From Patescibacteria group bacterium (GTDB taxonomy: Bacteria; Patescibacteriota; Patescibacteriia; UBA9934; GWF2-40-263): 64,000 bases of DNA. The translations under genes were made by a program, and so were the position numbers. Location of the stretch: NCBI GenBank assembly GCA_004297215.1, contig SCUM01000001.1:742716-806715 (forward strand), in the 5' to 3' direction. Below, one piece after another: positions 6,030 to 32,766 of the stretch (the first letter of the stretch is position 1; the number at the start of each line of letters is the position of its first letter). Under the pieces are notes generated by a model. That model ran no database searches. It worked only from the letters and a program-made list of their open reading frames with translations, and was not told where the DNA came from.

Positions 6030-6058
6030 TTGACCAAAACATGTATTCAAGGTATAAT
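6030..6058 (+). promoter_or_regulatory. Consensus sigma70 promoter of surface locus 1
   Basis: TTGACC, 17-nt spacer, TATAAT. Preceded by AAAATGCTTTGAC, shared with the promoter at 32728. Lies in a 270-bp AT-rich island. Confidence 0.7.
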
Positions 6059-6077
6059 ATGGTCTGTAGCTTAGACT

Positions 6078-6983
6078 ATGCGTTACGCATCGGTCGCCGC
6101 GACAATTGTGGGGATGTTTATCTATGTGCCTTTTGCATTCGCGGAAATGTCCTCCGCGAATTTTGAGATCCGTTGGGATACGTTGAGTTCTGGTGGAGAC
6201 GATACGAGCTCGTCCGCATCGTATCTGCTTCGCGATACAGCGGGAGACGCGGGGATCGGAGATTCGACGAGCGCCAGTTACGAGCTTGCCGCCGGCTATC
6301 GCCAGGGCGTGAACGACCAGGTGATTACGTTCGAGGTGTTCGCCCAGGACAACGGCACGGAGCAGGCAGCCACGGCGCTCGTCTCGACGACCATCACCAC
6401 GAGCACGGCCGGATTGTCCATCGATGACTTCATCCTGCTCGTGCAGGACAAGGGCGCCTCGCAGGTTTCCGCCGTGGGCAGGATCGTTTCGATCGGCGCG
6501 GGAACCATCACGCTCGACGAACTCAAGGACGGCGGGACCGCGCCGACGATCGACGGGACGAACGACTTCGTCTACGCGCTCACGTCTTCGACCGCCGCAC
6601 TCGGTACGCTCGACGTCGCCGCGGTCAACACGTCGGTCGTCGCGTTCGACGTCACGGCCGAGGCGGATGCCGGATACACGGTGCAGATGATGGATGACGG
6701 CAACCTCCGCAACGGCGGCAACGACATCAACGACGTCGCGGACGGCACCGTGACCGCCGGCAGCGAGGAGTATGGCGGCCGTTCGTCCGATACGACGCTT
6801 GCGGGCTCCACGTTCGACACGGCTGACACGGCCGTAACGACGGGCTTCCAGGACGTTGCGGACCGCTCCGTCGCGTCGTTCTCTTCGCGCGATTTCGTGA
6901 CGCTCAAGGCATCGATGACCGGCGCGACCGAAAACCTCGCGTACGCGAACGTCACGAGCTTCGTGATTTCCGGGAACTACTGA
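6078..6983 (+). CDS. Secreted subunit-like protein (signal peptide, three SxNY-type repeats, C-terminal ...FVISGNY)
   Basis: 301 aa. Signal peptide MRYASVAATIVGMFIYVPFAFA. Paralog of 32767..33426 (shared DV(A/S)DG(T/A)VTAGSEEYG and terminal (I/V)(A/S)(T/S)GNY). Ser/Thr/Asp-rich. Confidence 0.75.
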   Translation: MRYASVAATIVGMFIYVPFAFAEMSSANFEIRWDTLSSGGDDTSSSASYLLRDTAGDAGIGDSTSASYELAAGYRQGVNDQVITFEVFAQDNGTEQAATALVSTTITTSTAGLSIDDFILLVQDKGASQVSAVGRIVSIGAGTITLDELKDGGTAPTIDGTNDFVYALTSSTAALGTLDVAAVNTSVVAFDVTAEADAGYTVQMMDDGNLRNGGNDINDVADGTVTAGSEEYGGRSSDTTLAGSTFDTADTAVTTGFQDVADRSVASFSSRDFVTLKASMTGATENLAYANVTSFVISGNY

Positions 6984-6984
6984 T

Positions 6985-7863
6985 ATGAAGCGTCTCGCCT
7001 CCGTCATCGCCATGCTCACGATGCTCACGCCGGTTGCCGCACGCGCTTTTTCCGTTTCTCCGGCGATCATCGACCTCTCCGCCACGCGCGGGACGGTCGC
7101 GTCGACGTCGATCACCATCACCAATGCCGACGCACGGGAGAAGACGTATTACCTGCAGGCGATCGCCTTCGAGCCGCGCGAGGACGCGGACGCGCCGCGT
7201 TTCCTCCCGCGCGAAGAGGGGACGGCGGGATTGTCGGAGTGGATTTCGATCGAGGACCGCGTGCGCGTGCCGGCGGGCGGGAAGCTCACGGTACCGGTAA
7301 AGGCGGCGGTGCCCATGGATGCGCTTCCCGGGACGCACTATGCCGCGATCACCGTGTCGGACGCGCCGTATGACGTGGTGGCTTCCCAAGGCGCCCCGAT
7401 CCAGGCGCGGGTGGCGGTCTTGCTGTTCCTGACGGTAGAAGGAGGGACGGCGAAGGCCGCGCTCCTGGATTTCCTGCCGGATCCCGCCGGAGCCATCCGG
7501 GAGAACACCTCGCACAGGTACGCCCTTCGCATCCAAAATCAGGGAGACGTGGTCGTGATCCCCGTCGGTACGGTAGAGACGAGGGACCTGTTCGGGCGAG
7601 TCGTCGCGTCGGCGCAGGTGAACGGGGAAGGGAAGCGCGTGGTCCCCGGATCGACGCGGACGTTCGAGGTGATCGTGCCGGAGAAGGGACTCGCCCTCGG
7701 CCCGGTGACGGCCACGCTCAAGCTGACCTACGCATCGGACCAGCCCGCCCTGTCTTCGTCCGACTCCTTCTGGGTATTCCCATGGCCGGTCGTCATCCTG
7801 TCGGCCTTCGTCGGCCTGATGGGTCTCATGATCCTGGTCGGCATCGTCCGACGACGCGCCTGA
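6985..7863 (+). CDS. Membrane-anchored PapD-like/DUF916-like beta-sandwich protein (candidate assembly chaperone)
   Basis: 292 aa. Signal peptide. N-terminus FSVSPAIIDLSATRGTVASTSITITNADAREKTYYLQAIAFEP resembles the pilus-chaperone N-domain motif. C-terminal FWVFPW followed by TM helix and RRRA tail. Paralog at 35280..36236. Confidence 0.75.
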   Translation: MKRLASVIAMLTMLTPVAARAFSVSPAIIDLSATRGTVASTSITITNADAREKTYYLQAIAFEPREDADAPRFLPREEGTAGLSEWISIEDRVRVPAGGKLTVPVKAAVPMDALPGTHYAAITVSDAPYDVVASQGAPIQARVAVLLFLTVEGGTAKAALLDFLPDPAGAIRENTSHRYALRIQNQGDVVVIPVGTVETRDLFGRVVASAQVNGEGKRVVPGSTRTFEVIVPEKGLALGPVTATLKLTYASDQPALSSSDSFWVFPWPVVILSAFVGLMGLMILVGIVRRRA

Positions 7864-7864
7864 T

Positions 7865-10800
7865 ATGCCCCATATAAGGAGGAACGTCCATCGTCTCATC
7901 GCCGCCGCGACCATCCTCGCGAGCGTCTTGCCGTTCCTCCCCGCGCGCGCGGCCACGGTCACCTCCGCGAGCGACGTCATGACCACCCTGGAGACGTCGG
8001 CCGCCGCGAACCACGTCATCGCCTTCGTCACCCCATCGGGCGTTTCGGAAGGGGACACGGTCACCATCGAGTTCGACGCGGATTTCGACACGTCGGGCCT
8101 TACCGAAGATGACGTGGACGTGGAGGACGACGGCGTCGACCTTACGACCGCCGCGGATTGCAGCGGCGCGGAACAGGCGTCGGTCATCCTTGCTGCCGAC
8201 ACGTTCACCATCACCATCTGTGCCGGAGACGGGGGCGCGATCGCCGCCACGAGCGAGGTGACGGTGGAAATCGGCACCAATGCCACCGCTTCGGGCACGG
8301 GCACCTCCCAAATCGACAACCCGTCCGCGGCGGGCACCTATTACGTGTCCGTGTCCGGCACGTTCGGCGACGCCGGCTCCATCGCCCTTCCCATCGGAGG
8401 GGATGACACGATCGGCGTGACGGCGACGGTCACCACCGGCGGCGCTGGAGGAGGTGGGCCGCCGGCCCCGCCCGCGGGCGACACCACGCCGCCCGTCATC
8501 AGCAACATCACCGTGAGTTCGATCACGGCCACCTCGGCAATCGTCACCTGGGACACGGATGAGGCCGCGGACAGTCGCGTGGATTTCGGGCCCACCGTCG
8601 CCTACGAGAACGGGAGCGTCACGAGCGGGACCCTCGTCACCAGCCACGCGCTTACCCTCACCGGGCTCACGGGAAGCACCGAATACCACTTCCGCGTGCG
8701 CTCGAAGGACGCGGCGCTGAACGAGCGGATCAGTTCCGACAACACCTTCATGACCACGGACGGCGTCGCGCCGCTCATCTCGGCGATCGTCGTGACGGAC
8801 ATCACGACGACCAGCGCGCGCGTGACCTGGACGACGGATGAGGCCGCCGACAGCGCGGTCGATTTCGGACCCACCGTCGCCTATGGGACGATCGTCACGG
8901 ACGGGAGCCTGGTCGTGAGCCATTCCGTGGTGCTGACCGGACTCACGGAGAACGCCCTCCATCACTTCCGCGTGCGCTCGAAGGACGCGGCGCTGAACGA
9001 AGCCGTGAGCGGCGACGGGACGTTTACGACGCTCGACGATCCCAACCCGGGCAACGTCACCGGACTGTCGGTGACGGCGGGGGACGCGCAAAACCAGCTT
9101 TCATGGACGAATCCCCCGGACGGCGACCTTTCGTCGATCCGCGTCATCGCGTGCACGAACGAAGCGCCGAGCAGCCCGACCGATCCGGATTGCACGGTCG
9201 TGTCCAGTTCGCTCGCTTCCTCTTTCACCCACACCGGCCTTTCCAACGGCACCACCTACTTCTACGGCGTCTTCGCCGTGGACGCCGTTGGGCAGTTCAG
9301 TTCTGGTACGCTCGGGCAGGGTACCCCGAGCGTGCCAGAAGAAGAGCTGCCGCCGGAGGAGCCTCCCCCGGAGCCTCCCCCGGAAGCGCCGCCGGAACCG
9401 CCCCCAGAGGCGGTTCCACCCCCAGCCCTCCCGTCCGGCCAGGCGGGAGGAGCGTGCGGGGACGGCATCTGTTCGGACCTGGAGTCCGGCGCATCTTGCG
9501 CCGTCGACTGCGGTCCGCTCCCGCCCGCGGCCGCGTGCGGGAACGCCGTGTGCGAAGCCGGCGAGGACAGCGCCTCGTGCGCACAGGACTGTCCTCCCGG
9601 CCTCGTGCCGGCCGATGTCCTGCGGCAAGACCTCACGTTCCTTGCGGGAGCCGCCGGGCTCGCGCTCCCCGTGTCCGACCGGGGATCGGTCGCGGTGCTT
9701 TCGCGCCGTGCGCTCGTCGCGCGGCTTTCCGCCATCCACCTTGATCGACCGGTGGATCGCGTCGAACTTGCCCTTGAGGGCGAGACCTACCTCATGGCCC
9801 CAACCTTCTCGGAAGAGGAGGGACAGGGGTTGCGCGCCGCCGCCGTGGGCGACGACGCGTACGAGACCACGATCACGACGCCGGAGACGTCGGGATCCCA
9901 TCCGTTAGCGGTGACCGTCCACTACGGGGACGGCACCGTGCAGGCCGTCGCCTTGCTCCTCGACGTAAAGGGCGACGGATATGCCTATGCGTCCGTCGAC
10001 GATGCCGAACAGCGCGTTTCAGGCGCCACCGCCACGCTTCACGAGGTCAACGGGGGAACGGCCGTATGGGACGGGTCACCCTACGGGCAATCCAATCCGT
10101 TGACGACGGGCGGCAACGGCGCGTTCGCCTGGTACGCGCCGAACGGGACGTACGCCGTGTCCGTTTCGGCCGCCGGGTATGCGCCCGCGCGGACCGCGAC
10201 GTTCTCGGTCACGGACCACATCATCAATCCTCGCGTGCGGCTCGCCCTCGAGGAGGAGCCGCCGCTGATCCCGCCCCCTTCGGCCCCCGTCGCGGCGATC
10301 CTGGACGCGGCCGCCGCCGTCAACGAGACGCTCGAGGCGGTACGCGACCTTCCCGCCGTGCAGACGGCCGCGGACATCTCGGTTCCCGCGCTTGCCGTGA
10401 CCGCCTCCCTCACGGGCGTCACGCTCGCGATCGGGTTCAATTTCGTTCCTTTGCTCCAATATCTCTTCACCGCGCCCGTCCTGCTCGTGGGACGGCGCAA
10501 GCGTCGCGCTTTCGGGATCGTCTACAATTCGATCTCGAAGCTGCCCGTGGACCTTGCCACCGTGCGATTGTTCCGCCTGCCGGATGAGCTTCCCGCCGAG
10601 GGGGTTCCGGAGACCGGGAGGCTGGTGCAATCCCGCGTGACGGACCGCGGCGGACGCTATTTCTTCCTTGCCAATCCCGGCCGCTACCGCCTGGCGGTGA
10701 CGAAGCAGGGATTCGATTTCCCGACGGGCTACCTCTCATCCTCGCGGGAAGACCATGACTTCCTCGACCTCTATCACGGCGAGCCCATCGTCGTCTCCGA

Positions 10801-11329
10801 GGCCGGGGCCGTCATCGCGGCCAACGTCCCGCTCGACCCGTCGCAGGCCGCCGCGTTCCACGCTCCGGCCGCCATCGTCCTCAAGGCGCGCCTGCGGACG
10901 ATCCAACACGTCGTTTCCATCTCCGGCATCATCGCCTCGGTCGCGTTCGCGGTGATCAGGCCGGGCGCCCTGACGGTCGGGATGGTGCTCGTGCAGGCGC
11001 TCGTCTACCTTGCCGTGCGCCGCCTCGCGCGCGCGGCCAAGCCCAAGAGCTGGGGGATCGTGTACGACCAGGGGACGGACAAGCCGCTTGGCCGCGTCAT
11101 CGCGCGCGTGTTCGAGCCGCGGTACAATAAGCTCCTTGAGACGGCCGTCACCGACGGCAACGGCCGCTACAACTTCGTGCTCGGGCCCAACGAGTATTAC
11201 GTGGTGTTCGAGCATGAAGGCTACGACAACGTCGAGATACGCCCGGTGGATTTCACCGGACGCAAAGAGGCATCGGACTGGGGCGTCCAGGTCCGCCTGC
11301 CGCCAAAGCTCCTTCCCGCATCCGCGTGA
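7865..11329 (+). CDS. Large multidomain surface protein (subunit-like N-domain, 3x FN3, Cys-rich modules, TM helices alternating with carboxypeptidase-regulatory-like domains)
   Basis: 1154 aa. N-terminal 190 aa homologous to the 34101 protein (ATxTSAxDxM, NHxIxFxTPxGV, ADCS, IGTNAT, SGTFGDxGxIAL). FN3-like repeats with TEYHFRVRSKDAALNE. Pro/Glu-rich linker. Two CG(D/N)GxC...C..DC modules. TM + GRRKRR + CarbopepD_reg-like (TDRGGRYFF..PGRYRL) + TM + second CarbopepD_reg-like (TDGNGRYNF). Confidence 0.8.
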   Translation: MPHIRRNVHRLIAAATILASVLPFLPARAATVTSASDVMTTLETSAAANHVIAFVTPSGVSEGDTVTIEFDADFDTSGLTEDDVDVEDDGVDLTTAADCSGAEQASVILAADTFTITICAGDGGAIAATSEVTVEIGTNATASGTGTSQIDNPSAAGTYYVSVSGTFGDAGSIALPIGGDDTIGVTATVTTGGAGGGGPPAPPAGDTTPPVISNITVSSITATSAIVTWDTDEAADSRVDFGPTVAYENGSVTSGTLVTSHALTLTGLTGSTEYHFRVRSKDAALNERISSDNTFMTTDGVAPLISAIVVTDITTTSARVTWTTDEAADSAVDFGPTVAYGTIVTDGSLVVSHSVVLTGLTENALHHFRVRSKDAALNEAVSGDGTFTTLDDPNPGNVTGLSVTAGDAQNQLSWTNPPDGDLSSIRVIACTNEAPSSPTDPDCTVVSSSLASSFTHTGLSNGTTYFYGVFAVDAVGQFSSGTLGQGTPSVPEEELPPEEPPPEPPPEAPPEPPPEAVPPPALPSGQAGGACGDGICSDLESGASCAVDCGPLPPAAACGNAVCEAGEDSASCAQDCPPGLVPADVLRQDLTFLAGAAGLALPVSDRGSVAVLSRRALVARLSAIHLDRPVDRVELALEGETYLMAPTFSEEEGQGLRAAAVGDDAYETTITTPETSGSHPLAVTVHYGDGTVQAVALLLDVKGDGYAYASVDDAEQRVSGATATLHEVNGGTAVWDGSPYGQSNPLTTGGNGAFAWYAPNGTYAVSVSAAGYAPARTATFSVTDHIINPRVRLALEEEPPLIPPPSAPVAAILDAAAAVNETLEAVRDLPAVQTAADISVPALAVTASLTGVTLAIGFNFVPLLQYLFTAPVLLVGRRKRRAFGIVYNSISKLPVDLATVRLFRLPDELPAEGVPETGRLVQSRVTDRGGRYFFLANPGRYRLAVTKQGFDFPTGYLSSSREDHDFLDLYHGEPIVVSEAGAVIAANVPLDPSQAAAFHAPAAIVLKARLRTIQHVVSISGIIASVAFAVIRPGALTVGMVLVQALVYLAVRRLARAAKPKSWGIVYDQGTDKPLGRVIARVFEPRYNKLLETAVTDGNGRYNFVLGPNEYYVVFEHEGYDNVEIRPVDFTGRKEASDWGVQVRLPPKLLPASA

Positions 11330-11443
11330 CGTCCCGGGTAACGTCGGGGATGTCACCCTCGGCACATCGTACGCGGCGATGTGCCCCGACCGTCGAGACT
11401 CATCAAGGATGGGTCGCGGCGGTCGGCCAACGGGCCGAATGTA

Positions 11444-11475
11444 CCCCCTCATGCTCCCCCTTTGATAAGGGGGAG
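11444..11475. repeat. Palindromic repeat CCCCCTCATG + CTCCCCCTTTGATAAGGGGGAG upstream of giant gene 1
   Basis: Same family as 20039-20092, 36258-36334 and 55450-55508. Sits 14 nt before the ATG at 11489. Confidence 0.75.
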
Positions 11476-11488
11476 ATAGCTCGTCCGC

Positions 11489-14400
11489 ATGCTCAAGCGG
11501 TTCAAGGACAACCCGGATCACTTTTTCAGGAGGCTGTTCGCCTTCACGGCCTTGGGTCTGGTGATGGCCGGAGCGGTGTCGTACATGCTTACGGACAGTT
11601 ACCTGTCCGTCTTCGCCGTCTCTCCTCCCAACATCATCCCGTACCAAGGCCGCCTGCTCAACGCCAACGGAGTGCCCGACGCTTCCGCTTCCCGCGACTT
11701 CCAGTTCCGTTTGTACGACTCCCTAGCCGCCGGCACGTGCCTGTGGAGCAACGACGACAGCTCCTGCGCCTCCGACGCCGATTTGGCCGTGACCCTCACC
11801 GACGGGTTGTTCTCCGAGAACCTCGGCGACACCGGGGCCGGATACGCCGCCATTCCGGATTCCGTGTTCGCGGATGATGCCTCCGTGTTCCTCGAGGTGG
11901 AGGTGGAAGGGGAGGTGCTTTCCCCGAGGAAGCAGATCGGAGCCGCGGCGTATGCGTTCAATGCCGACACGCTCGACGGGATGGATTCGGCGAGTTTCGC
12001 CCTCGTGGACGACGCGTTCGTGCAGGACGGCAACAGCTTCGGGGCAACGGCCGTCATCGGCACCAACGACACCGAGGATTTCGCGATCGAGACGGACGGG
12101 ACCACGCGCATGACGGTCCTTTCAAGCGGTGAGGTCGGAATCGGCACGGCCACCCCGCTCGACACCGTCAGCATCCTCGGGACGTCGGGTTCGACCGGCA
12201 TCGGCATCGATGACAGCACCGCGGGAGGGAACACCTATCTCATCCTCAACCACATCAGCGCGTCGGATTCGAGCGAGGAGATCCTCATGAACGGCGACGG
12301 AACGATCGGACTCAACATCACCAACCAGAACTCCGGCACGCTGGGCACCGACCTCACCGACATCCCTTCGAGCGCCAACTTCTACACCAACTCCGGGAAT
12401 GCCGGCGGGCTCATCCTCGCTTCCCAGCACGCCACGGCCCCGATGATCTTCGCCACCGGCGGCATCGCCACGGGCGACGAGCGCATGCGCATCGACTCCG
12501 CCGGAAACGTCGGGATCGGCACGACGACCCCCGGCGAGACGCTGGAAGTATCCGGCACCTCGTACGTCTCCGGCCACGCCGCGATCGGCGCGGACGCGGC
12601 CGTGGACGACGGGAGCCTCCTCTATCCCGGCTCGATCTTCTCCAACACGCTCAACGTGTCCGAGCGGAGCACGGACGCGAGCGTGGACTACGTCGAGGGC
12701 ACCACCAACTACCTCCTGTACGACCCGTCGGCGGACGCCTCGGGCATCTGGGCGATCGCCCTTGATTCCGAGGCGGCCACCGAGGCGACGAACGCCGAGG
12801 ATGTCGGCACCCTGTCCGCCGGGTATTTCAACGCGACCCACAACGGGACCGGCGACATCACGAGCTGGATGTCCGGCATCGAGGCGTACGCCTTCACCAC
12901 CGCGACCGGCGGAAGCTCGGTCGAGAGCATTGCCGGATACTTCTCGCTTAGCCTGTCGGATCCCCGTTCCTCAGGCACCGAGAACAACTACGGCGTGTGG
13001 TCGGCCGTGAGCCGCACCGGCGCCACCGGCGGCACCATCAACACCTACGGCGTGTACGTGGATGACACGGGCGTGGGCAACGCGGGAGCGGGCACTTCCA
13101 CCGCCTACGGCCTGTACCTCGAGGATTTTCCGACCGCCGACGCCCAATATTCCATCTACTCCGAGGGCGGCCAAAGCTACCACGCTGGCAACTTCGGGAT
13201 CGGGGCGACCACGCCCGACGCCGACCTCGACATCGAGGCCGCCGAGGACACGGAGCGCGTGAGGCTCACGGACACGAGCAACGCGGACTCGGTCGGTCTC
13301 TATGTCGGCGACGGCACGGCAGGGCTCGACGGGACCCTCTCGGCCCAGGCGGGGAGCCTGTTCCTCGACGAGGACGGGAAGCTGTGGGTGAACATGGACG
13401 GGGCGACCAACTGGGACCAGGTGGCGACCACGGCCGGAGGCGCCCTGGACCTCGACGGGGCGTACGACAACGATTCAGACAAGAAGATGGCCGTGGACAA
13501 CGCCTCGGGCCTCGAGTTCGAGAGCTCCACGGCCGGCAACGTGTTCGTGGACCTGCAAAGCACCGGCGACTTCGTGATCCAGTCGGTTGGCACCGCCTTC
13601 GCCACCTTCAACGACTCGGGGAACGTCCTTTTCGAGAACTCGCTCACGGTCGGTTCCAGCTCCGCCGACGTCGTCCTGTTCAACGCCGACGTGGACAGCC
13701 ACTTCATCCCCGACGACGACGACACCTACGACCTGGGCGCCGACGCCCAGCGCTGGAGGGACCTCTACCTTGGGGCCGCGACCCTCCACGTCGGTTCCCT
13801 TATCGGGGACGAGGGAACCATCTCCTATGACACCGGGGCGAACGCGCTCGTCGTGAACGAGGGTGGGGCCGACACCGACTTCCGCATCGAAGGCGACACG
13901 GAGGCGAACCTCCTCTTCCTCGACGCCGGCAACGGCCGCGTGGGGATTGGTACGGCTAGCCCGACCGCGCGCGTACACGCGACCCAATCGACGGACGGCG
14001 GCGGAGGATACGTCTTCGAGAATTCGAACGCGGGAGCGTCCGCCTTTTCCGAGGTTTCCGTCGTGTCCGATGGCGCGACGGGTTCGTGGAGGTCGTTCGG
14101 CACAGGAAATACGAACCTCGGCTTTGATTCCATTTCATTAGCCGATTCCGTGGCCATCGGCGCGAATACGGATGCGACCCGCATGTTCGTGGCCACCTTC
14201 GGCACCGCACCGCTCCTCATCGGCACCAATCTCAACACGAGCGGGACGCCACCGGGGATATTCATCGACACGTCCAACAACGTTGGGATCTTCGACGAGA
14301 CCCCGTCCGCCAAACTCGACGTAGGAGGGACCTTTGCCGTGCAAGGGAATTCGACCCTCGGCAACGCCTCGGGCGACACAGTCACCTCAAACGCCGCCGC

Positions 14401-19933: not shown

Positions 19934-20038
19934 TCGGACCGTTCTTTCTCCCAAGTCAGATCGCAGAGGGCGACCTCGGTCGCCCGCATGCCGTGTCCAT
20001 GAAGGAACCCCACACCTTCACGGCCACACGCATGCGCT

Positions 20039-20092
20039 ACCCCCTCATGCCTGCCTGCCGGCAGGCAGGCTCCCCCCTTTGATAAGGGGGAG
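20039..20092. repeat. Composite palindromic repeat (inverted orientation) upstream of giant gene 2
   Basis: CCCCCTCATG + CCTGCCTGCCGGCAGGCAGG + CTCCCCCCTTTGATAAGGGGGAG, the reverse-complement arrangement of the copy at 55450-55508. Confidence 0.8.
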
Positions 20093-20106
20093 GTAGCGCA
20101 GCCGTT

Positions 20107-23100: not shown

Positions 23101-26100
23101 GCCAACAACAACGTGGGCATCGCGGATTCCACGCCGGACAACCTGCTCGACATCCTCTCCGGTTCCGACGCCGCCCTCGCGCTTACCTCGACGGGCACGG
23201 ACACGGACCCGCTCATCAAGTTCGAGCTTGCCGACGGCACGCCTACCTTCACCTTGGGCGTGGACGATTCGGATTCGGACAAGTTCAAGATCTCCACCAC
23301 GGCGCTTGGCACGAGCGACCGCCTGGTCATCGACTCGTCCGGCTTCGTGGGCATTGGCACCTCGACGCCGGACGCGGCGTTCGACGTGGAAGCGGCCGTG
23401 GACGCCAACGGGGCGAATGTCCTGTTCGAAGCCAACGACTCGGGGGTGTCCGGCAGCTACTTCCGCATCGCCGACGGCACCGAGGCGGACACGCATTTCG
23501 TCCCCTACATCATGACGAAGGGGATCGGCACCGGGGCGGCGGACCGCGCCGGGCTGATCATCGACGCGCAGCCGGGCGAGGACGGGAGCGACGACGTCGC
23601 GGTGATCGTCGACGCGCATCTTTCCGGCGCGGCGCTCACGAGCGCGCACCTGTTCGAGGTGCGAAACGACGCGACGCCGCTGCTGCGCGTCGCAGCCAAC
23701 GGCAACCTCGTCTCGTTCGGTTCCGTCGGCATCGGGACGGGAACGCCCGGGGCCAGCCTCGACGTGGATCCCGCCAACGTCGTGGGCGGCGGCACCTCCG
23801 AGCAACCCTCGATCCTCGGATCGAACCAGGTGATTGCGCTTGCCGACGGGACGACCCGGGCGAATCAGCGCCAGTTCAAGTTCCTCGCGCCGACCCTGAA
23901 CGGGGTCGCGGGCGGAGGCACCGAAACGGTCACGGACGCGGCCACCTTCTACGTCTCCGACGCCCCGTCGGGTTCGGACATCACCTTCACCAACGGCCCG
24001 TACGCCCTGTGGGTGGATGCCGGGACGGCGCGGTTCGACGGGGACGCCATCGTGGGCGGCAGCACGTCGATCACGGAGACCCTCGCGAACGCCGGATTCT
24101 CGATTGGCGGCGACGACCTGTTCGTGGCCGGCACCGCGGGCGTGGAAGGGAACGTGTACACGGACGGGTCGTTCATCGCGGGCGCCACCCTCACGCTCGC
24201 GGATTCCGGCATCACCGAGAGCGGCGCGTTCACCTTCACCTCCCAGCTCGCCGCCGGCGGCACCACCTCTTCCGCCTACAACCTGGTCACGAGCAACGAC
24301 CTCGGTTCCGCCGACGAAGTGCTCCAGATCGGTGACTCGACAGGCACCTTCGCGACCGTCCTTGGGAACGGCAACGTCGGGATTGGAGAAGTCGACCCGG
24401 CCACGATCCTACACGTTTCCGGCACCCAGGCTCGCGTCACCATCGAGGACACGGGAAAGGGGACGGGGCCGGCCGTGCTTGGGCACGATTCCGGCATGTT
24501 GTTTCTCGAGAACAACGGCATACGCGTCATCTCCATCAACGACTCCGGCGGTTCCACGGGATTCGGCGACCAGAGCCCGAACGCCATCGTGGAAGTCGAC
24601 CAGGCCGGCGGCAGCGTCGACCCATTCCTCATCTCGAGCAACAACGGCGTGGACGGCGACCTGTTCAACGTGCAGGACGGAGGCGCCGTGGGCGTGGGCG
24701 ACGTTTCTCCGGACGCCAGGTTCGACATTGACGACGGCGCCGCGACCGGGACGATCGTGGGGGTGCTCTCGAACGCCGGGACGCAGGCCGGATCCTTGAT
24801 CGGCCTTTCGCTCGACTTCGACTCGTCGCTCGCCGGCGCCGCCAACCTGGACTTCACCGGCGTGAGGCTCCTCACCCCCAATCTCACGCAATCCACCGCG
24901 GATACCACCGACTACCTCGGGTACGACCTGGCGGCTGGCGCCATCACCCAGGACACGCTTGCCGGGACGATCAATTGGACCGGCGCGCGCATCGCCATGC
25001 CCGTGCAGGTGCAGACCACCGGCATCGTGAACACGAGCGGGCTCACGGTCACGGACAACGGGTCGAGCAACAGCGGGGTGAAGCGCGGATTGTTCGTGGA
25101 TTTCAGCGGCATCCAAAGCGGCGGGACCCTGGTGGGCCTTGACGTGGACAGCATCACAACCGGCGGCGGCAACGGGCTTGGCGTGCGCATCGGGTCCGGG
25201 TTCGACACGGATCTCCAGTTTGTGAACGCCGCCGCCGTCATCCGCGTTCCCAACGCGGGCACGCTCGACTTCCAGGACGCCTCGGAGAACTCCCTCATGC
25301 TGCTTACGGACGCGGGAAGCACGAGCACCCTCGACGTGAACGGCTCCATCCGCGCCGGGACGCCTGGCACGGACGGCCAGTTCCGCCTCTACTCCGAGCA
25401 GGGAGCCACGGACTACGAGGTCGCGTTCAACCCGCATGCGGCCATGACGCAGGCCACCGCCTACACCCTTCCGGCGGACGACGGCGGATCCGGCCAATTG
25501 CTCACCACCGACGGGTCCGGCGCGCTCTCTTGGTCAACCGCCGCTTCGGGCGACATCACGGCCGTGGGCTCCATGACCTCCGGCGACGCCTTCGCGGACT
25601 CCACGGCCGACGACGACTGGCTCGGCCTTGGCGCCAGCGCCGGCCGCATCGAGTTCGATGACCAGGCCACGGACGAGGTGAACATCCTCGGCGCGAACGT
25701 CGGCATTGGCACCTCGACGCCTGGTTCAACCATCGACGCCACGTCCCCGGCGACCCTCACCACGGCCTATCAGCTCCTGGCCGATTCGGTGACGGACGGG
25801 ACGGGATTGGAACTGTCCCTCGACAGCCTGAACGAGGGTTACGGCCTGCTCGTAACGAGCACGGCAGATGCGGATTACGGGTCTGACCTGGCCGGATTCC
25901 AGCAGTTCGCCGTGTCCACGGGTACCGCGACCATGGACGGGAACGTGGAGAGGATCGTTCAGAACCTGGACTCCAGTACCACGGGGACCCTCACGGTGAG
26001 CGGCAACGCGATGCGGATCCAGCGCGCGGTGAACGCCAACAGCGGCACGACCCTGGACGCGACGGGCGCGGTCATGCGTATCAGCGACCAGACCGGCGCC

Positions 26101-27555
26101 GGGACAGGGACCCTCAACTCGAGCTCGGACGTGCTTTCCCTCACCCAATTCATCACGACGAACAGCGGCGACGCGTTGGGCATCCTGCACCAGGGCACAG
26201 GCATCGGGGCCCACATCACCATGAGCACCGTGAGCGCCCCCGCATCCGGTTCCGTGGGCAACCAGGCCTTGGTGCTCGACACCAATGAGACGCAGAGCAA
26301 CGACGACATGTTCATCATCCGCTCCGACGCCGACGGCACTCCGGACACGGAGTTCATCTTCGAGGCCGACGGGGATGCCGTGGCCGACGGCAGCTTCACC
26401 GGCGGCGGGGCCGACTACGCCGAGTACTACCGTGTTTCCGACCAAGGGATTGAGGCCGGCGACGTCGTCTGCCTCGACCAGGAGAACCCTGGCGACGTCA
26501 CTCGCTGCTCCGCTTCCGCCCCTGTCCCCACCGGCGTCATCTCCACCAAGCCCGGGTTCCTCGCCAATGGCCAGGGCAGGGACGTGGCGGCCGACCCCTC
26601 GTTCAAGCCGGTCGGCCTGATGGGTCAGGTCCCGACGAAGGTCAGCCTTGAGAACGGCGACATCGCGGTCGGCGACCCCGTCGTCGCTTCCGTGACCGCT
26701 CCGGGACGCGCCATGAAGGCCGTCGAGGCCGGCCAGATCGTCGGCTACGCGCTCGAGCCCCATACCAGCCAGTCTCCTGACGCGGAGATCCTCGTATACG
26801 TGCGCCCTGGATACCACGCGGCACTCTCCTCCCAGACCGCCGCCGGCACCGACAACCGGGCTTCGGAGATCCCGTCCTCGGGCCTCACCGCGCTCAACAT
26901 GAGCGGCAACATCTACATGGCGGGCAACGGAATCCTCGACGTTGGCGCGATTGAGGGCATCGGCGCGCGCTGGTCGGTCGACGCCGATGGGAAATTCGCA
27001 ACCCAGGCTTCCTACGACGTGGTCATCAAGAGCTACCAGGACGAGGACGTGACCGTGCACGCGGTGCTCGGGCGCGAACACAAGGTGACGCTCGACGGCA
27101 CAGCGACCCTCGAGAACGGGGTCGCGACGGTCGCGTTCGAGACGGTCGACCCGCTCTTCAACGACATCACGTCGACGACGGCCGACATCCGCGTGTCCGT
27201 GACCCCCAACGGCCCCGCCTACCTCTATGTCGTCTCGAAGGACCACAACGGGTTCACGGTGCAGCAGTTGAACGGCAGCGACTCGGGCATCACCTTCGAC
27301 TGGTTCGTGAGCGCGTATCGGAAGGACTATGAGCCGGAGGTGATTGAGGTTGTTGAGGTGACGGAGGAGATGCCGGTCGAGGAATCGGTCCCGACCGAAG
27401 GACCCGTGCCGGAACCGGTCGTCGAAGAACCTGCACCTATCCAGGAGACGGCTCCCGTGACCGACCCGGCACCGACCGAGCCTGCTTCGACGGATTCGCC
27501 ACTGGTTGAAGAACCGGCGCCAGAACCGCCCCCGACAGATGAAACCCCGACATAG
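20107..27555 (+). CDS. Giant surface protein 2 (tandem paralog of giant 1)
   Basis: 2482 aa. The first ~135 aa after the TM and a ~1.3-kb internal block are near-identical to giant 1 at DNA level (20237-20610 vs 11617-11990; 21385-22650 vs 12560-13830). One C-terminal conserved module (26400-26780), conserved C-terminal domain, PE-rich tail. Confidence 0.85.
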   Translation: MDLLERKDHPLCRLMQGVVAVALVITGGIASTWVMFEALSVFAVSPPNIISYQGRLLNANGVPDASASRDFQFRLYDSLAAGTCLWSNDDSSCASDADLAVTLTDGLFSENLGDTGAGYAAIPDSVFADDASVFLEVEVEGEVLSPRKQIGAAAYAMNADTLDGINSTSFFVQNGNSLGAAAVLGTNDGFGLELETGGTTRLTLGTSGAITVPLAGSFVFDDDATDGLDDDMTLEVAASLAYPGFDVTVMHPSFGLLELVDPVNSAPGIALHGDLPAYAINVDNPGGAGTAFFPMSFFREGASSSPFFSMQTYPDDDGWAIYGPSVADPGVIQILEAGTVNAGAYAARSDASAIPILCASTRVEETAANLVQESCFMADGSLDLGLALAGTDTTVAQGGIERSSGSDETFAFANQGAGVLSLTADGTVDVSGHAAIGADALIDDGGLLYPGSTFSNTLNVSERSTDASVDYVEGTTNYLLYDPSADASGIWAIALDSEAATEATNAEDVGTLSAGYFNATHNGTGDITSWMSGIEAYVYTTATGGSSISNIGGYFSVTAQDPRATGTEDNYGVWSAVHRTGATGGTINTYGMYVDNDGVDAAGAGTSTLYGLFLESMTGADTNYSIYSAGGQSYHAGNFGIGATTPDADLDIEAAEDTERVRLTDSSNADSVGLYVGDGTAGLDGTLSAQAGSLFLDEDGKLWVNMDGATNWDQVATTAGGGTDLDGVYDNDSDKKMAVDNASGLEFESTTAGNVFVDLQSSGDFVIQSVGTAFATFNDSGNVSFENSLTVGSSSADVVLFNADVDSHFLPDDDDTYDLGADAQRWRDLYLGAATLHVGSLIGDEGTLSYDSTPNDFNFANGGATRMTIQSDGDVGIGDSMTSPTAQLHIKQTAAEDALRVDDEAAGTTYFVVDDGGNVGIGVTSGPSSTLHVVGDTRIGATDYVTMAQDGGGFYVEQIGSSDALRPIRLQSRNAATQYSQFFVDPVNGFQFLINATGANNNVGIADSTPDNLLDILSGSDAALALTSTGTDTDPLIKFELADGTPTFTLGVDDSDSDKFKISTTALGTSDRLVIDSSGFVGIGTSTPDAAFDVEAAVDANGANVLFEANDSGVSGSYFRIADGTEADTHFVPYIMTKGIGTGAADRAGLIIDAQPGEDGSDDVAVIVDAHLSGAALTSAHLFEVRNDATPLLRVAANGNLVSFGSVGIGTGTPGASLDVDPANVVGGGTSEQPSILGSNQVIALADGTTRANQRQFKFLAPTLNGVAGGGTETVTDAATFYVSDAPSGSDITFTNGPYALWVDAGTARFDGDAIVGGSTSITETLANAGFSIGGDDLFVAGTAGVEGNVYTDGSFIAGATLTLADSGITESGAFTFTSQLAAGGTTSSAYNLVTSNDLGSADEVLQIGDSTGTFATVLGNGNVGIGEVDPATILHVSGTQARVTIEDTGKGTGPAVLGHDSGMLFLENNGIRVISINDSGGSTGFGDQSPNAIVEVDQAGGSVDPFLISSNNGVDGDLFNVQDGGAVGVGDVSPDARFDIDDGAATGTIVGVLSNAGTQAGSLIGLSLDFDSSLAGAANLDFTGVRLLTPNLTQSTADTTDYLGYDLAAGAITQDTLAGTINWTGARIAMPVQVQTTGIVNTSGLTVTDNGSSNSGVKRGLFVDFSGIQSGGTLVGLDVDSITTGGGNGLGVRIGSGFDTDLQFVNAAAVIRVPNAGTLDFQDASENSLMLLTDAGSTSTLDVNGSIRAGTPGTDGQFRLYSEQGATDYEVAFNPHAAMTQATAYTLPADDGGSGQLLTTDGSGALSWSTAASGDITAVGSMTSGDAFADSTADDDWLGLGASAGRIEFDDQATDEVNILGANVGIGTSTPGSTIDATSPATLTTAYQLLADSVTDGTGLELSLDSLNEGYGLLVTSTADADYGSDLAGFQQFAVSTGTATMDGNVERIVQNLDSSTTGTLTVSGNAMRIQRAVNANSGTTLDATGAVMRISDQTGAGTGTLNSSSDVLSLTQFITTNSGDALGILHQGTGIGAHITMSTVSAPASGSVGNQALVLDTNETQSNDDMFIIRSDADGTPDTEFIFEADGDAVADGSFTGGGADYAEYYRVSDQGIEAGDVVCLDQENPGDVTRCSASAPVPTGVISTKPGFLANGQGRDVAADPSFKPVGLMGQVPTKVSLENGDIAVGDPVVASVTAPGRAMKAVEAGQIVGYALEPHTSQSPDAEILVYVRPGYHAALSSQTAAGTDNRASEIPSSGLTALNMSGNIYMAGNGILDVGAIEGIGARWSVDADGKFATQASYDVVIKSYQDEDVTVHAVLGREHKVTLDGTATLENGVATVAFETVDPLFNDITSTTADIRVSVTPNGPAYLYVVSKDHNGFTVQQLNGSDSGITFDWFVSAYRKDYEPEVIEVVEVTEEMPVEESVPTEGPVPEPVVEEPAPIQETAPVTDPAPTEPASTDSPLVEEPAPEPPPTDETPT

Positions 27556-27575
27556 CGTCGGGGTTTTGCTATACT

Positions 27576-29969
27576 GTGGGGACTATGACGCGCTCCTCCG
27601 ACCTGTACCTGCGCCTCGCGCGCGGGTTCCTGTATGTCCTGCTCGGGCTGTTGCCGCTGTTCTATCTCCCCGTGAGCCTGGAGCCCTTGGAGGTGAACAA
27701 GCAGACACTGCTCGTGCTGCTCACTTCCGCCTCGGCGCTCGCGTGGATCGGATCCATGGTGAGCGCGCGCGCCGTGTCCGTGCGCCGCGGGTGGGTGAAC
27801 CTGCTGCCCGTGCCGCTCGTCGCCTTCACGCTCCTTTCCGCGGCGTTTTCCTCGGGCCCGTACCTTTCCTGGGTGGGAACCGCGGGACAGGAATACATGA
27901 GCGCGCTCTCGGTGCTTGCGTACGCGCTGCTGTGGTTCTTGTGCGCCAACCTGCTCGCGCTTCCCGCGCATAGGCGCACGGCCTTTGCCGTGCTGCTTGG
28001 CTCCGGCGCGTTCGCCGGGATCCTGGGCATCCTCGGGATCCTGGGCGTGCGCGCGCTCCCCATCCCCGGCGGGATGCTGGGCAACACCGTGGGGAGCCCC
28101 AACGCCTTCGGGATGTACCTCGCCTCGGTCGCCGCGCTCGCCTGCGCCCTGTTCCTCGTGCACCGGGAGTCCGACGCGGTCATGTACCGGGGCCGCAAGG
28201 GCGCGTTCCAGCACGCCGCCATCTTCCTTGCCTGCGCCGTCGCATTTCTCGCGCTCATGCTGGTGGATTATGCGCCGGTGTGGGCCGCGCTTGAAGCGGG
28301 CGTGCTCGCGCTGTTCGCCCTTTCCATGGCGCGCGCCAAGGACATCGGCCCGGGGAACCGGTTCACGCTCCCGTTCCTCCTGCTGGTATCGAGCGTCCCG
28401 TTCCTGCTCGTGTTCGACCGGCCGCTGCCCGCGAAGATCCCCACCGAGGTCACGCCCGACGCCTCCTCCTCATGGGCGGTGGCGCGCGAGACGCTTTCCC
28501 ATGACGGCGCCTTGCTGGGTTCCGGCCCCGGCACCTTCGTGTACCAGTACGGCCGTTACCGTCCGGAGGAGGTGAACAAGACCGCCTTCTGGAACACGCG
28601 GTTCGACCGCGCGAGCAGCTTCGCGTTCACCGTGCTGCCCACCTTCGGCGTGCTCGGGACGCTCGGCTGGGCCGTCGCGCTCTTGGGCTCGCTCGCCTGC
28701 GGCATCGGCGCGTTCCTGCGCGCGCGCGAACGGGAACGCCTGGTCGCGCCCTTCGTGCTCGTCCCGCCGCTTGCCGCGCTCCTCATCGCCCTGTGCCTGT
28801 ACGGCGGCACCCTCACGCTGCTTACGCTGTGCTTCGCGCTCTCGGGGCTCGTCTGCGGCGCCGCGATGCGCGAGGGCCGCGCCGACCTCGACCGCGCCCC
28901 GCGCCTCTCGCTCGCGCTCTCGGCCCTGTTGGTGCTCGCGGCCACGGCCATCGCCACGGGGCTGTTCGGGAGCCTCATCCGGTACGCCTCGGAGGCCGCG
29001 TTCGCGCATGCCGTGCGCCTTGACCGCGCCGACGCCCCCATGAAGGAGATCGTGGCAAGCCTCGACCGCGCCGCGAGCCTCAACCGCTGGAACGACGTGT
29101 TCTACCGCAACCTCGCGCAGGCGTTCCTGCTCATGACCGGCGAGGAGATCAAGGCGCTTTCCGGCGCCGCGACCCCCATGACCGACGAGCAGCGCGCCTA
29201 CGTGCAGGCGCTCACGGGCGCGGCCGTGAACGCGGGGGTGCGCGCCACCGAGCTCGGGCCCGACAACGCGCTCAACTGGCTCGCGCGCGGGGCGCTCTAC
29301 CGCGAGTTCATCCCGCTCATCGGGAACGCCGGCGAGCACGCGGTGGAAGCCTACCAGCGGGCGATCGCGCTCGAACCCCTCGACCCGGAGAACCGCACCG
29401 AGCTCGGGAAGGCGTTCCTCACGCTCGCCGAGAACAACCGCGCGCTCACGGCCGCCGAGGACAAGGCCGTGGCCGACGAGGCGCTCGCCAAGGTGGCGGG
29501 GTACCTGAAGCAGGCCGAGGAGCAGTTTGACAAGGCGATCGCTCTCAAGGCCGATTACGCCCCGGCGCACTACCAGCTCGGCCTCATCTACGAACGCCAG
29601 GGGAAGATCGGCGAGGCCGTGGGAAAGATGGAATCCGTGTCGCAGTACAACCCGCTCGACGTGGGCGTGTTCTTCCAGCTCGGGATGCTCTACCTGCGCC
29701 GCGGCAGCGAGGGCGACCAGGACCGCGCGGAAAAGGCGTTCCTTTCGGCGATCGCGCTTTCCCCGAGCTATAGCAACGCGCGCTGGTTCCTGGCGAGCAT
29801 CTACGAGCAGAAGCGCGACCTGCCCAAGGCCATCGAGCAGGTGGGGAAGGTGCTCGAATACAACCCGGACAACCAGCTCGTGAAAGCGAAGCTCGACCGC
29901 CTCAAGGCCGGCAAGGTAAGTTCCACCACTCCGGTCCCGCTCACCGACCCCGCGCCCGCGACGCCATGA
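27576..29969 (+). CDS. Polytopic membrane protein with Wzy_C/O-antigen-ligase-like core and C-terminal TPR repeats
   Basis: 797 aa. About 10-12 predicted TM helices over the first 440 aa, including a GSGPGTFVYQY..loop motif reminiscent of the O-antigen ligase family. C-terminal 350 aa are TPR-like (AIALEPLDPEN.., AIALKADYAPAHYQLGLIYERQGK.., AIALSPSYSNARWFLASIYEQ..). Confidence 0.6.
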   Translation: MGTMTRSSDLYLRLARGFLYVLLGLLPLFYLPVSLEPLEVNKQTLLVLLTSASALAWIGSMVSARAVSVRRGWVNLLPVPLVAFTLLSAAFSSGPYLSWVGTAGQEYMSALSVLAYALLWFLCANLLALPAHRRTAFAVLLGSGAFAGILGILGILGVRALPIPGGMLGNTVGSPNAFGMYLASVAALACALFLVHRESDAVMYRGRKGAFQHAAIFLACAVAFLALMLVDYAPVWAALEAGVLALFALSMARAKDIGPGNRFTLPFLLLVSSVPFLLVFDRPLPAKIPTEVTPDASSSWAVARETLSHDGALLGSGPGTFVYQYGRYRPEEVNKTAFWNTRFDRASSFAFTVLPTFGVLGTLGWAVALLGSLACGIGAFLRARERERLVAPFVLVPPLAALLIALCLYGGTLTLLTLCFALSGLVCGAAMREGRADLDRAPRLSLALSALLVLAATAIATGLFGSLIRYASEAAFAHAVRLDRADAPMKEIVASLDRAASLNRWNDVFYRNLAQAFLLMTGEEIKALSGAATPMTDEQRAYVQALTGAAVNAGVRATELGPDNALNWLARGALYREFIPLIGNAGEHAVEAYQRAIALEPLDPENRTELGKAFLTLAENNRALTAAEDKAVADEALAKVAGYLKQAEEQFDKAIALKADYAPAHYQLGLIYERQGKIGEAVGKMESVSQYNPLDVGVFFQLGMLYLRRGSEGDQDRAEKAFLSAIALSPSYSNARWFLASIYEQKRDLPKAIEQVGKVLEYNPDNQLVKAKLDRLKAGKVSSTTPVPLTDPAPATP

Positions 29970-29974
29970 TCGAC

Positions 29975-30001
29975 AAAAAAGCCGCCCGGAGGCGGCTTTT
30001 T
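29975..30001. terminator. Bidirectional rho-independent terminator
   Basis: AAAAAAGCCGCCCGGAGGCGGCTTTTTT, a perfect GC hairpin flanked by an A-run and a T-run, between the + strand CDS and the minus-strand tRNA. Confidence 0.85.
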
Positions 30002-30077
30002 TGGTGGACCCTAACGGGATCGAACCGTTGACCTCTTCCATGCCATGGAAGCGCTCTACCAGCTGAGCTAAGGGCCC
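30002..30077 (-). tRNA. tRNA-Ala (anticodon GGC)
   Basis: Reverse complement GGGCCCTTAGCTCAGCTGGTAGAGCGCTTCCATGGCATGGAAGAGGTCAACGGTTCGATCCCGTTAGGGTCCACCA. G3:U70, anticodon loop ATGGCAT, CCA encoded. Confidence 0.9.
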
Positions 30078-31294: not shown

Positions 31295-31370
31295 GAAGGC
31301 CTCAGGCCCCAGGCATGAAGGTTACACATGGCGCTCATGTTTTCCTTAGGCCTTTCCGCCTGAGGCCTTC
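31295..31370. terminator. Imperfect long hairpin between convergent ychF and the methyltransferase gene
   Basis: GAAGGCCTCAGGC ... GCCTGAGGCCTTC arms. The motif CATGAAGGCCTCAGGC recurs at 56050-56070. Confidence 0.5.
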
Positions 31371-32313: not shown

Positions 32314-32320
32314 TTTTTTC

Positions 32321-32410
32321 CCATCGTCATTGCGAGGAAGGAGCGAAGCGACTGACGAAGCAATCTCGTCGCTCGCGGGGGAACGGGATTGCTTCGCTTC
32401 GCTCGCAATG
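32321..32410. repeat. Palindromic element of the CATTGCGAG / GACGAAGCAATC family
   Basis: TCATTGCGAGGAAGGAGCGAAGCGACTGACGAAGCAATCTCGTCGC...GGGATTGCTTCGCTTCGCTCGCAATGA. Related copy at 49915-50040. Confidence 0.7.
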
Positions 32411-32756: not shown

Positions 32757-32766
32757 AGCTAAGAAT

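Follow-up and report, generated by a model that had tools for sequence, protein, structure and literature searches.

Bacteria of the Candidate Phyla Radiation (CPR), or Patescibacteria, represent a large share of bacterial diversity, and a life in attachment to other microbes is assumed for them, but we know of almost no attachment machinery in them beyond that of a few Saccharimonadia. In this work we focused on a 64-kb stretch of DNA (approximately 65% G+C, hereafter the window) from a Patescibacteria group bacterium (assembly GCA_004297215.1, contig SCUM01000001.1, positions 742,716 to 806,715), in which six consecutive genes at positions 6030-29969 (locus 1) had been regarded, in an original prediction made from the sequence alone, as a candidate undescribed system for chaperone-assisted assembly of a surface fibre. 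Which machinery do these genes encode, and is it a new one? The answer that we favour, and consider rather probable, is that locus 1 is a divergent, Uhrbacteria-type form of the Pam pilus machinery known from CPR bacteria, joined with giant fibres for host recognition.

The six open reading frames (ORFs), named by their start coordinates in the window, were found on one strand exactly where they had been predicted:

6078-6983, forward strand: ORF6078, 301 aa, PamT-like cap or subunit (NCBIfam, AlphaFold2 model)
6985-7863, forward strand: ORF6985, 292 aa, membrane-anchored chaperone-like protein (AlphaFold2, Foldseek, profile searches)
7865-11329, forward strand: ORF7865, 1154 aa, putative base or tether (Pfam, hhalign, transmembrane scan)
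11489-19933, forward strand: ORF11489, 2814 aa, giant 1, MAT-like fibre protein (NCBIfam, PDB profile, paralogy)
20107-27555, forward strand: ORF20107, 2482 aa, giant 2, paralogous MAT-like fibre protein with a different central shaft (NCBIfam, paralogy)
27576-29969, forward strand: ORF27576, 797 aa, polytopic membrane protein with C-terminal tetratricopeptide repeats (TPR) (Pfam TPR, hydrophobicity, synteny)

The Pam pilus was described in Candidatus Mycosynbacter amalyticus and other CPR bacteria (Troman et al. 2026, bioRxiv 10.64898/2026.03.03.709456). According to this preprint, it comprises the PapD/FimC-like chaperones PamC and PamD, which are anchored by a transmembrane helix, a tip protein (PamT) and a tether (PamR). 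The major pilins PamA and PamB were resolved by cryo-electron microscopy (cryo-EM) and consist of a nine-stranded N-domain, a donated linker strand and a C-domain; PamT was put at the tip by modelling only. PamR, of about 33 kDa, was proposed to combine an N-terminal donor strand with FnIII and a transmembrane helix. The pam neighbourhoods are centred on a tail-fibre-like protein, and neither WxL nor DUF916 is mentioned in the preprint. As this closely analogous system has been published and NCBIfam models for it exist, the term 'undescribed' no longer applies to locus 1. Fibre assembly with the help of a chaperone, without usher or sortase, gained support from the PamT homology of ORF6078 and from the fold of ORF6985, which best matches WxLIP and chaperone-usher chaperones.

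ORF6078 is composed of a signal peptide (residues 1-22), a conserved N-segment (residues 23-80) with three amphipathic strands of the form S-x-[NS]-[YF]-x-[ILV], an inserted beta-barrel (residues ~81-170) and an immunoglobulin (Ig)-like C-domain of the Pam-pilin type (residues ~171-301), with the chain end ..SGNY. Its residues 5-116 matched positions 7-114 of the NCBIfam model NF058579 CPR_pilus_PamT (E 3.2e-15, 56.2 bits, for a curated cutoff of 240 bits), and residues 169-284 matched NF058581 CPR_Pam_pilin_C (E 2.7e-4, 21 bits, for a cutoff of 55 bits). An exhaustive HMMER search with the family profile resulted in 1311 cluster representatives at E<=1e-3, many of them only 215-240 aa long and matching just the N-terminal ~85 and the C-terminal ~135 positions. 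Against the PamT profile, which has 241 positions, these short relatives gave E-values of 1e-15 to 1e-17, and P0211 among them covered it from end to end with 64 bits. Since relatives made of N-segment and C-domain match PamT, ORF6078 can be understood as a PamT homologue with an insertion of ~90 residues; on this sequence evidence it is a homologue, not an equivalog. The insert between N-segment and C-domain is absent from a short paralog encoded further downstream in the window (ORF32728) and measures ~90 residues in ORF6078 and ~440 in locus L062, so that this site appears to be a variable 'payload' position. The original view that no known pilin, sortase, usher or WxL signatures are present therefore has to be given up for pilins, in view of the PamT match (E 3e-15), and stands for the three others, none of which was found.

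Other searches with ORF6078 were negative. Pfam gave no match at E<0.01, Foldseek with the predicted model gave none below E 1e-3, and the family profile matched no PDB sequence at E<=10, in a PDB copy apparently lacking the Pam pilin structures. The AlphaFold2 model (predicted local distance difference test score, pLDDT, 79) contains two confident beta domains, at residues ~80-170 and ~180-300, and leaves residues 12-79 unstructured; the N-segment is conserved to the same degree as the folded parts, although it is disordered in this monomer model. ORF6078 and ORF6985 are identical to the NCBI hypothetical proteins EPO34_03845 and EPO34_03850, respectively. The deposited product for the gene at 6078 has 285 aa, 16 residues fewer than the 301-aa ORF; with the 301-aa start the signal peptide becomes normal and the length agrees with that of most orthologues, and M1 is conserved in more than 90% of the alignment.

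In the CPR contig L062 (600-4200), the PamT-like protein with the large insertion is encoded a few kb from PilO, several N_methyl pilins and a prepilin peptidase. Pam-like and type IV pilus filament systems may be neighbours there.

The second protein, ORF6985, had been called PapD/DUF916-like and tethered by a transmembrane helix, a label that fold, profile and transmembrane evidence showed to be correct. A signal peptide is followed by two Ig-like beta-sandwich domains, a C-terminal transmembrane helix (residues 267-291) and an RRRA tail, and the two beta-sandwiches and the helix were recovered in the AlphaFold2 model (pLDDT 87). The best Foldseek match was the Enterococcus faecium WxLIP structure 9i25_C (E 1.7e-12), followed by CfaA (E 6e-10), CsuC, FaeE, CupB2, Caf1M and EcpB, with TM-scores of 0.5-0.6 relative to the target. 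The chaperone-usher chaperones among these matches were of the class 5, archaic and classical types (E 6e-10 to 1e-7). In profile searches of the PDB the family matched EfmWxLIP1 at E 4e-4, and at E 1.6e-7 with a wider alignment. The Pfam family WxLIP_PGBD (PF06030, DUF916) was matched by 11 of 35 family members (best E 9e-9); ORF6985 alone reached E 0.058 with PF06030 and had no Pfam match at E<0.01. Together these data support, at the superfamily level, that ORF6985 belongs to the WxLIP/DUF916 superfamily. Going by the published description of PamC and PamD as two-domain chaperones with a C-terminal transmembrane helix, it would also be their analogue.

The resemblance to chaperone-usher pili (Pap, Fim, Csu, CFA/I) stays at the level of the fold, as the Pfam families PapD_N and PapD_C and the fimbrial families had no match in the six locus-1 proteins. 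In contrast to those systems, locus 1 has neither usher nor outer membrane, its chaperone is membrane-anchored, and the probable donor is an inter-domain linker instead of an N-terminal extension. As for sortase-assembled pili, no LPxTG-like motif was present in any locus-1 ORF, and Pfam detected no sortase.

The likeness to WxLIP is the basis of the main rival explanation. WxLIP is a DUF916-DUF3324 protein anchored by a transmembrane helix, and a beta-hairpin mediates its binding to the WxL domain (PMC10599100; PDB 9i25, 'bound to long WxL'). ORF6985 might in the same way be a permanent tether holding ORF6078 by beta-strand insertion in a non-filamentous, WxL/Csc-like complex, with no exchange with ORF7865 and no polymer. 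In favour of this, WxLIP is the closest solved structural relative of ORF6985 and its best match in both structure (Foldseek 1.7e-12) and sequence (profile 1.6e-7; PF06030 11/35), with sequence-profile homology in the N-domain. The WxL/Csc clusters of Firmicutes (Hassan et al. 2023, PMC10599100; PDB 9i1y, 9i25) further share with locus 1 the signal peptide, two Ig-like domains and transmembrane helix of ORF6985, a set of one small partner, large partners and one tethered Ig-like protein, and the monoderm envelope. Because locus 1 contains no polymerising pilin, a permanent tether remains plausible. However, no WxL motif was found in ORF6078, ORF6985, ORF7865 or ORF20107, nor any Pfam WxL match; the partners encoded in locus 1 carry Pam-type pilin domains instead, and the E-value of ORF6985 against PF06030 is the modest one given above. 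Moreover, ORF6078 is homologous to PamT, a component of a filament whose major pilins were resolved by cryo-EM. Further evidence on this alternative comes from the third gene and from other loci.

ORF7865 begins with a signal peptide and a pilin-type N-domain of ~160 residues, after which comes the linker strand DDTIGVTATVT (residues ~30-190 for both). The rest of the chain consists of a poly-Gly/Pro spacer, three FnIII domains (Pfam fn3 x3), domains that are Cys-rich or CarboxypepD_reg-like (Pfam CarboxypepD_reg) and a hydrophobic membrane module. The transmembrane scan marked hydrophobic segments at residues ~838-878 and ~1013-1054, with Arg/Lys-rich flanks. In 55 sequences the linker strand is conserved, with the consensus D-[DS]-x-[GA]-V-[ST]-A-[TN]-V, and poly-Gly and FnIII follow it. 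N-domain and strand align with the first half of ORF34101, a pilin-like protein encoded in a second locus of the window (39% identity; hhalign 99.7%). The same type of N-domain is found in proteins ending in a Pam_pilin_C-type domain, namely ORF34101 and a 766-aa protein of locus L059; ORF7865 has no such acceptor C-domain. By analogy, ORF7865 may be seen as the 'donor half' of a Pam-type pilin embedded in the membrane, following a logic like that of the PamR tether. Having a donor strand but no acceptor domain, it would be able only to end a chain.

A natural fusion joins the first and third genes. In the CPR contig L063 (1641-4442; Logan SRR17737360) a single protein of 933 aa starts with the ORF6078 N-segment (E 1.3e-23), continues directly with an FnIII stalk and has a C-terminal third that corresponds to the ORF7865 membrane module (E 2.7e-99). 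It lacks both the pilin C-domain and the anchor N-domain; a giant and a TPR protein come next, and neither a chaperone gene nor a pilin C-domain gene was seen on this contig. A similar N-segment fusion occurs in an FnIII protein of Candidatus Liptonbacteria (P0257, MFH0890459.1). Read as a Rosetta stone, the fusion in L063 suggests that ORF6078 and ORF7865 form one structure, in which case the C-domain, the N-domain with its linker and the chaperone would serve the non-covalent joint between the two proteins.

A second, more canonical Pam-like locus lies at positions 32728-53437 of the window:

32728-33426, forward strand: ORF32728, short PamT-like paralog, 232 aa, N-segment and C-domain, chain end ..ATGNY (NCBIfam PamT E 7e-14; Pam_pilin_C E 2e-7)
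34101-35258, forward strand: ORF34101, 385 aa, pilin-like, with N-domain, linker strand and C-domain, chain end ..ATGTF (PamA/B-like architecture)
35280-36236, forward strand: paralogous chaperone-like protein with transmembrane anchor, 318 aa (28-32% identity to ORF6985)
36342-49241, forward strand: ORF36342, third giant MAT-like paralog, 4299 aa (paralogy)
49243-49908: ORF in the tail of the locus
49910-52483: tail ORF, FnIII/Big_5-like
52487-53437: tail ORF with two transmembrane segments and CarboxypepD_reg

The second half of ORF34101 aligns with the C-domain of ORF6078, and both share the terminus ..TG[NT][FY]; among the NCBIfam models ORF34101 had no match even at E<=10. This second locus may supply the polymerising pilin that locus 1 lacks. 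The same set of parts was found elsewhere. In L064 a PamT-like protein (240 aa), a pilin (386 aa), a chaperone (324 aa), an anchor (1099 aa) and a giant are encoded in one array. The CPR contig L059 codes for a MAT-like fibre, a PamT-like protein, a large pilin and a chaperone, and its 766-aa protein joins the ORF7865-type N-domain to a C-terminus that matches Pam_pilin_C (E 5.8e-8). The pilin-like proteins with N-domain, linker and C-domain next to the same chaperone family, in L064 and in the second locus, argue against a WxLIP-like permanent tether, as do the N-domain and linker of ORF7865 and the L063 fusion, which favour a joint between ORF6078 and ORF7865. We consider such a tether unlikely, although it is the foremost competitor of the Pam-type reading.

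In the second locus, an ORF at 33445-33888, located between the genes for the short PamT-like and the pilin-like protein, matched the 23S rRNA-intervening-sequence protein family (E 1.4e-39) and gave a weak bAvd-like match (E 1.7e-4). Proteins of the bAvd type go together with diversity-generating retroelements. No reverse transcriptase was found among the Pfam-annotated ORFs of the window, in a survey that did not include template or variable repeats.

Conserved synteny, on which the original prediction depended, was found throughout the relatives. A profile scan with the ORF6078 family, using one genome per GTDB species, identified 53 loci, all in Uhrbacteria or Patescibacteria-type metagenome-assembled genomes (MAGs); the named relatives are Candidatus Uhrbacteria. 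Counted over the loci long enough to include the gene in question, the chaperone-like gene lies directly 3' of the ORF6078 homologue in 49-50 of 50 loci, the FnIII/anchor gene comes next in 46/46 and a giant gene after it in 43/43, a regularity well beyond what chance would produce. All seven loci that reach far enough have a single giant followed by the TPR membrane protein, which indicates that the giant pair of the window is a lineage-specific duplication. The position of the cassette between polA-holA-rmuC-tRNAs and ychF is the same in dozens of species.

Many third-party annotation (TPA) MAG records in this set (L007, L010, L011, L015, L018, L020 and others) are titled 'uncultured Gammaproteobacteria bacterium'. 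They contain the Uhrbacteria-type cassette with full synteny and 50-63% identity to ORF6078; their titles appear to be taxonomically wrong.

This invariance bears on a second alternative, in which the operon merely groups co-regulated but physically independent proteins with a common surface role. Seen in this way, the cell would make ORF6078 in abundance as a coat or S-layer-like protein, ORF6985 would be a membrane protein with an Ig-like fold, ORF7865 and the giants would act as adhesins on their own, and the TPR protein would be a factor of the envelope. The evidence for interaction is indeed indirect, Ig-like and FnIII folds are generic, and ORF6078, first behind a strong promoter, is unusually conserved (50-65% identity across Uhrbacteria, versus ~40% for ORF6985). 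On the other side stand the gene order, invariant in 43-50 species-level loci, the occurrence of the same component set in other orders in other CPR lineages, the fusion of the ORF6078 N-segment to an ORF7865-type anchor in L063, and the 1-nt gaps among the first three genes, which suggest translational coupling. We judge this explanation improbable, though less so than a phage origin, discussed below.

The giants had been taken as the largest in a series of increasingly large surface proteins that might act as subunits. This did not hold, as they are probably MAT-like fibres and have no detectable pilin domain. ORF11489 starts with an N-terminal hydrophobic segment, possibly cleaved between SVFA and VSPPNII, and continues with a conserved N-domain of ~130 aa and a shaft of (G)IGT..P repeats; a C-terminal module, also conserved, and a tail rich in Pro and Glu complete it. 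Its paralogy with ORF20107, already proposed, was evident by BLASTP (74% identity over the first ~215 aligned residues, including a long near-identical run, and further blocks of 50-65%), and ORF36342 is a third paralog of both. The NCBIfam model NF053851 Bdello_MAT_N was matched weakly by ORF11489 (20.7 bits, E 2.8e-4) and ORF20107 (24.8 bits, E 1.5e-5), for a cutoff of 60 bits, and by the giant homologue of L059 with 34 bits (E 1.8e-8). The ORF11489 shaft matched the Bdellovibrio MAT fibre bd2133 (PDB 8ond_A, E 2.8e-4; 8ojn_C, E 0.011); a PDB sequence search gave no match for the C-terminal module of the giants, nor for the whole of giant 2. In the mosaic adhesive trimer (MAT) fibres of Bdellovibrio bacteriovorus, a beta-rich domain of ~130 aa follows the signal peptide in all members and is presumed to bind a surface element yet to be identified (Caulton et al. 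2024, PMC10769870). The giants resemble them (PMC10769870; 8ond, 8ojn) in such an N-domain after the export signal and in the repetitive shaft, with matches that are weak but repeated, and both occur in bacteria that must recognise other bacteria. They differ in length (2482-4299 aa versus ~1000), in scores below the NCBIfam cutoff, in a distinct C-terminal module, in being encoded inside a Pam-like operon and in having no detected S74 domain. From these sequence comparisons, the giants are probably Bdellovibrio-MAT-like fibres, predicted to be trimeric.

We also considered the giants as oversized pilins and rejected this, because in an all-against-all hhalign comparison of domain profiles their N-domain was unrelated to the pilin or chaperone domains, and no domain of the giants was detectably shared with pilin, chaperone or anchor. 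Just two real links emerged from this comparison, one between the N-domains of the anchor and of ORF34101, the other between the ORF6078 C-domain and the ORF34101 C-terminus.

Tail-fibre-like repeats in the giants, a PHROG match and PDB matches to fibre proteins could also point to a prophage or a tailocin-like remnant. However, the giants matched a single PHROG family, of unknown function, and the locus has no capsid, terminase, tail-tube or integrase genes. The cassette occupies one site (polA-holA-rmuC-tRNAs / ychF) in dozens of species, and a search of 2.9 million viral contigs found no relatives of ORF6078. With no phage structural or integrase genes, a fixed site and no viral relatives, a phage origin is highly improbable and was rejected.

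The last gene, ORF27576, conserved as the closing gene of the cassette, codes for ~11-12 hydrophobic segments within residues 1-465 and for C-terminal TPR repeats. It had been described as a Wzy_C/TPR protein. Pfam confirmed the TPR part, whereas Wzy_C (PF04932) had no match in ORF27576 or in three orthologues at E<=5-10; against the PDB, its profile found TPR proteins only.

From these elements we infer, in every step, the following mechanism for the Pam-type reading. All locus-1 products would be exported by Sec. ORF6985, anchored through its C-terminal helix at the outer side of the cytoplasmic membrane, would transiently complete the incomplete Ig-like C-domain of ORF6078, and its strand would then be swapped for the conserved linker strand behind the pilin-type N-domain of ORF7865. 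ORF7865 would terminate the chain and fix it to the membrane by its FnIII stalk and hydrophobic module, as proposed for PamR. The product would be a capped stalk, or a pilus if the second-locus pilin ORF34101 polymerises in between, with the conserved N-segment and the inserted barrel of ORF6078 at the distal end. The two giants would form trimeric MAT-like adhesin fibres on the same surface, possibly docked to the stalk, and the polytopic TPR protein ORF27576 would be a conserved accessory. The likely role is attachment of these tiny epibiotic bacteria to a host cell.

Several points weigh against this reading. Donor-strand assembly and strand complementation among the locus-1 proteins are themselves deduced. 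No pilin of the PamA/PamB type, with N-domain, linker and C-domain, is encoded within 6030-29969, so that locus 1 possibly makes no filament. The scores of ORF6078 are far below the curated cutoffs (56 versus 240 bits and 21 versus 55 bits), its most conserved part (residues 23-80) has no assigned structure or partner, and ORF6985 and ORF7865 agree with PamC/PamD and PamR in architecture and fold class only. Finally the giants, which have their own N-terminal hydrophobic segment and no shared domain, may be independent of the rest.

Compared with the Pam pilus as a whole, locus 1 shares the CPR host, predicted Sec export of the subunits, the lack of usher and sortase, a PamT homologue (ORF6078) and C-domains of the Pam_pilin_C type, chaperone-like proteins with two Ig domains and a C-terminal transmembrane helix (PamC/D), a putative FnIII tether with an N-terminal donor element (PamR) and a co-located tail-fibre-like protein. 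It differs in several respects. The relatives are Uhrbacteria, whereas Saccharimonadia and Microgenomatia are stressed in the preprint, and all locus-1 scores are far under the NCBIfam curated cutoffs. The PamT-like ORF6078 carries an inserted barrel of ~90 aa. The putative tether, of 1154 aa, includes a complete N-domain of the pilin type, three FnIII domains and a polytopic module, versus ~33 kDa for PamR. The major pilin, with N-domain, linker and C-domain, is in the second locus and not in the locus-1 operon. A polytopic TPR protein is a fixed member of the cassette, and instead of ATP synthase or CorB, locus 1 has polA, holA and rmuC next to it. As far as can be judged from sequence, locus 1 probably works like the Pam pilus system and is distantly homologous to it, with failed thresholds and a different composition.

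A variant of the Pam-type reading would give the machinery another main purpose. The pilus-type proteins here may be chiefly a docking platform for the giants, with the ORF6078 N-segment and its three amphipathic strands as the receptor for the trimeric MAT-type N-domain, and CPR Pam chaperones and Firmicute WxLIP may be one ancient monoderm family of membrane-tethered, strand-complementing chaperones. The N-segment is highly conserved, lacks structure on its own and is directly fused to the anchor in some CPR. We put this proposal forward as speculative and doubtful.

The control of locus 1 was examined through its spacing and its expression signals:

6030-6058, forward strand: sigma-70-like promoter TTGACC-17nt-TATAAT, 11/12 consensus match, ~19 nt 5' of the ORF6078 ATG
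11456-11475, forward strand: leader hairpin copy 1, CCCCCTTTGATAAGGGGGAG, upstream of giant 1, with the 3' arm overlapping the likely Shine-Dalgarno sequence
20073-20092, forward strand: leader hairpin copy 2, exact repeat of copy 1, upstream of giant 2; overlaps the likely Shine-Dalgarno sequence
29975-30002, no strand assigned: bidirectional intrinsic-terminator-like hairpin A6-GCCGCC-CGGA-GGCGGC-T6, read directly from the sequence

Both the consensus promoter and the strong terminator expected at the two ends were thus found. A scan of the region gave four promoter-like sites for 1.1 expected. The terminator stem-loop proper (GCCGCC-CGGA-GGCGGC) lies at 29981-29996, right behind the ORF27576 stop codon, with an A-run and six T around it. 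It adjoins, and is common to, the convergent tRNA-Ala (30002-30077), and it was overlooked by the automatic terminator scan because the A/T runs lengthen the stem. The locus is flanked upstream by polA, holA, rmuC and two tRNAs and downstream by ychF. The six ORFs are separated, in order, by 1, 1, 159, 173 and 20 nt. The gaps of 1-2 nt or otherwise short that had been described therefore apply to the first three genes, and the fifth gap is 20 nt; those of 159 and 173 nt do not fit, and tight coupling is limited to ORF6078, ORF6985 and ORF7865, whose 1-nt gaps suggest translational coupling. Neither of the two longer gaps contained promoter-like or terminator-like sites when scanned.

The leader hairpin, which is stable, stands directly upstream of every giant gene, variants of it being present at 36257-36315 before ORF36342, and the folding z-scores were -2.0, -4.4 and -6.3. 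The hairpin may serve to control translation; in 61 loci of relatives no conservation of it was found. Elsewhere in the window, the ORFs at 31315-32355 (346 aa) and, on the reverse strand, at 56072-57163 (363 aa) had no Pfam match at E<=1e-3.

New in this work are a cassette found across Uhrbacteria, a polytopic tether of unusual size that includes a pilin N-domain, a PamT-like cap with an insertion, the fixed tie to MAT-like giants and a TPR protein, the fusion evidence, and the sequence link between the chaperone and WxLIP/DUF916. Pam-type components thus reach Uhrbacteria, where they are strongly diverged and make up a cassette of five genes that hardly varies and has a fixed place in the chromosome, and the locus links them genetically to giant MAT-like fibres. 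The natural fusion provides a concrete and testable pairing of cap and anchor, and more than 1000 clusters of 'hypothetical' proteins gain names. The sequence link between CPR chaperone-like proteins and the WxLIP-DUF916 proteins of Firmicutes suggests a common monoderm route to usher-free surface assembly. If the docking platform were real, it would identify the 'surface element' by which predatory or epibiotic bacteria keep their MAT fibres attached.

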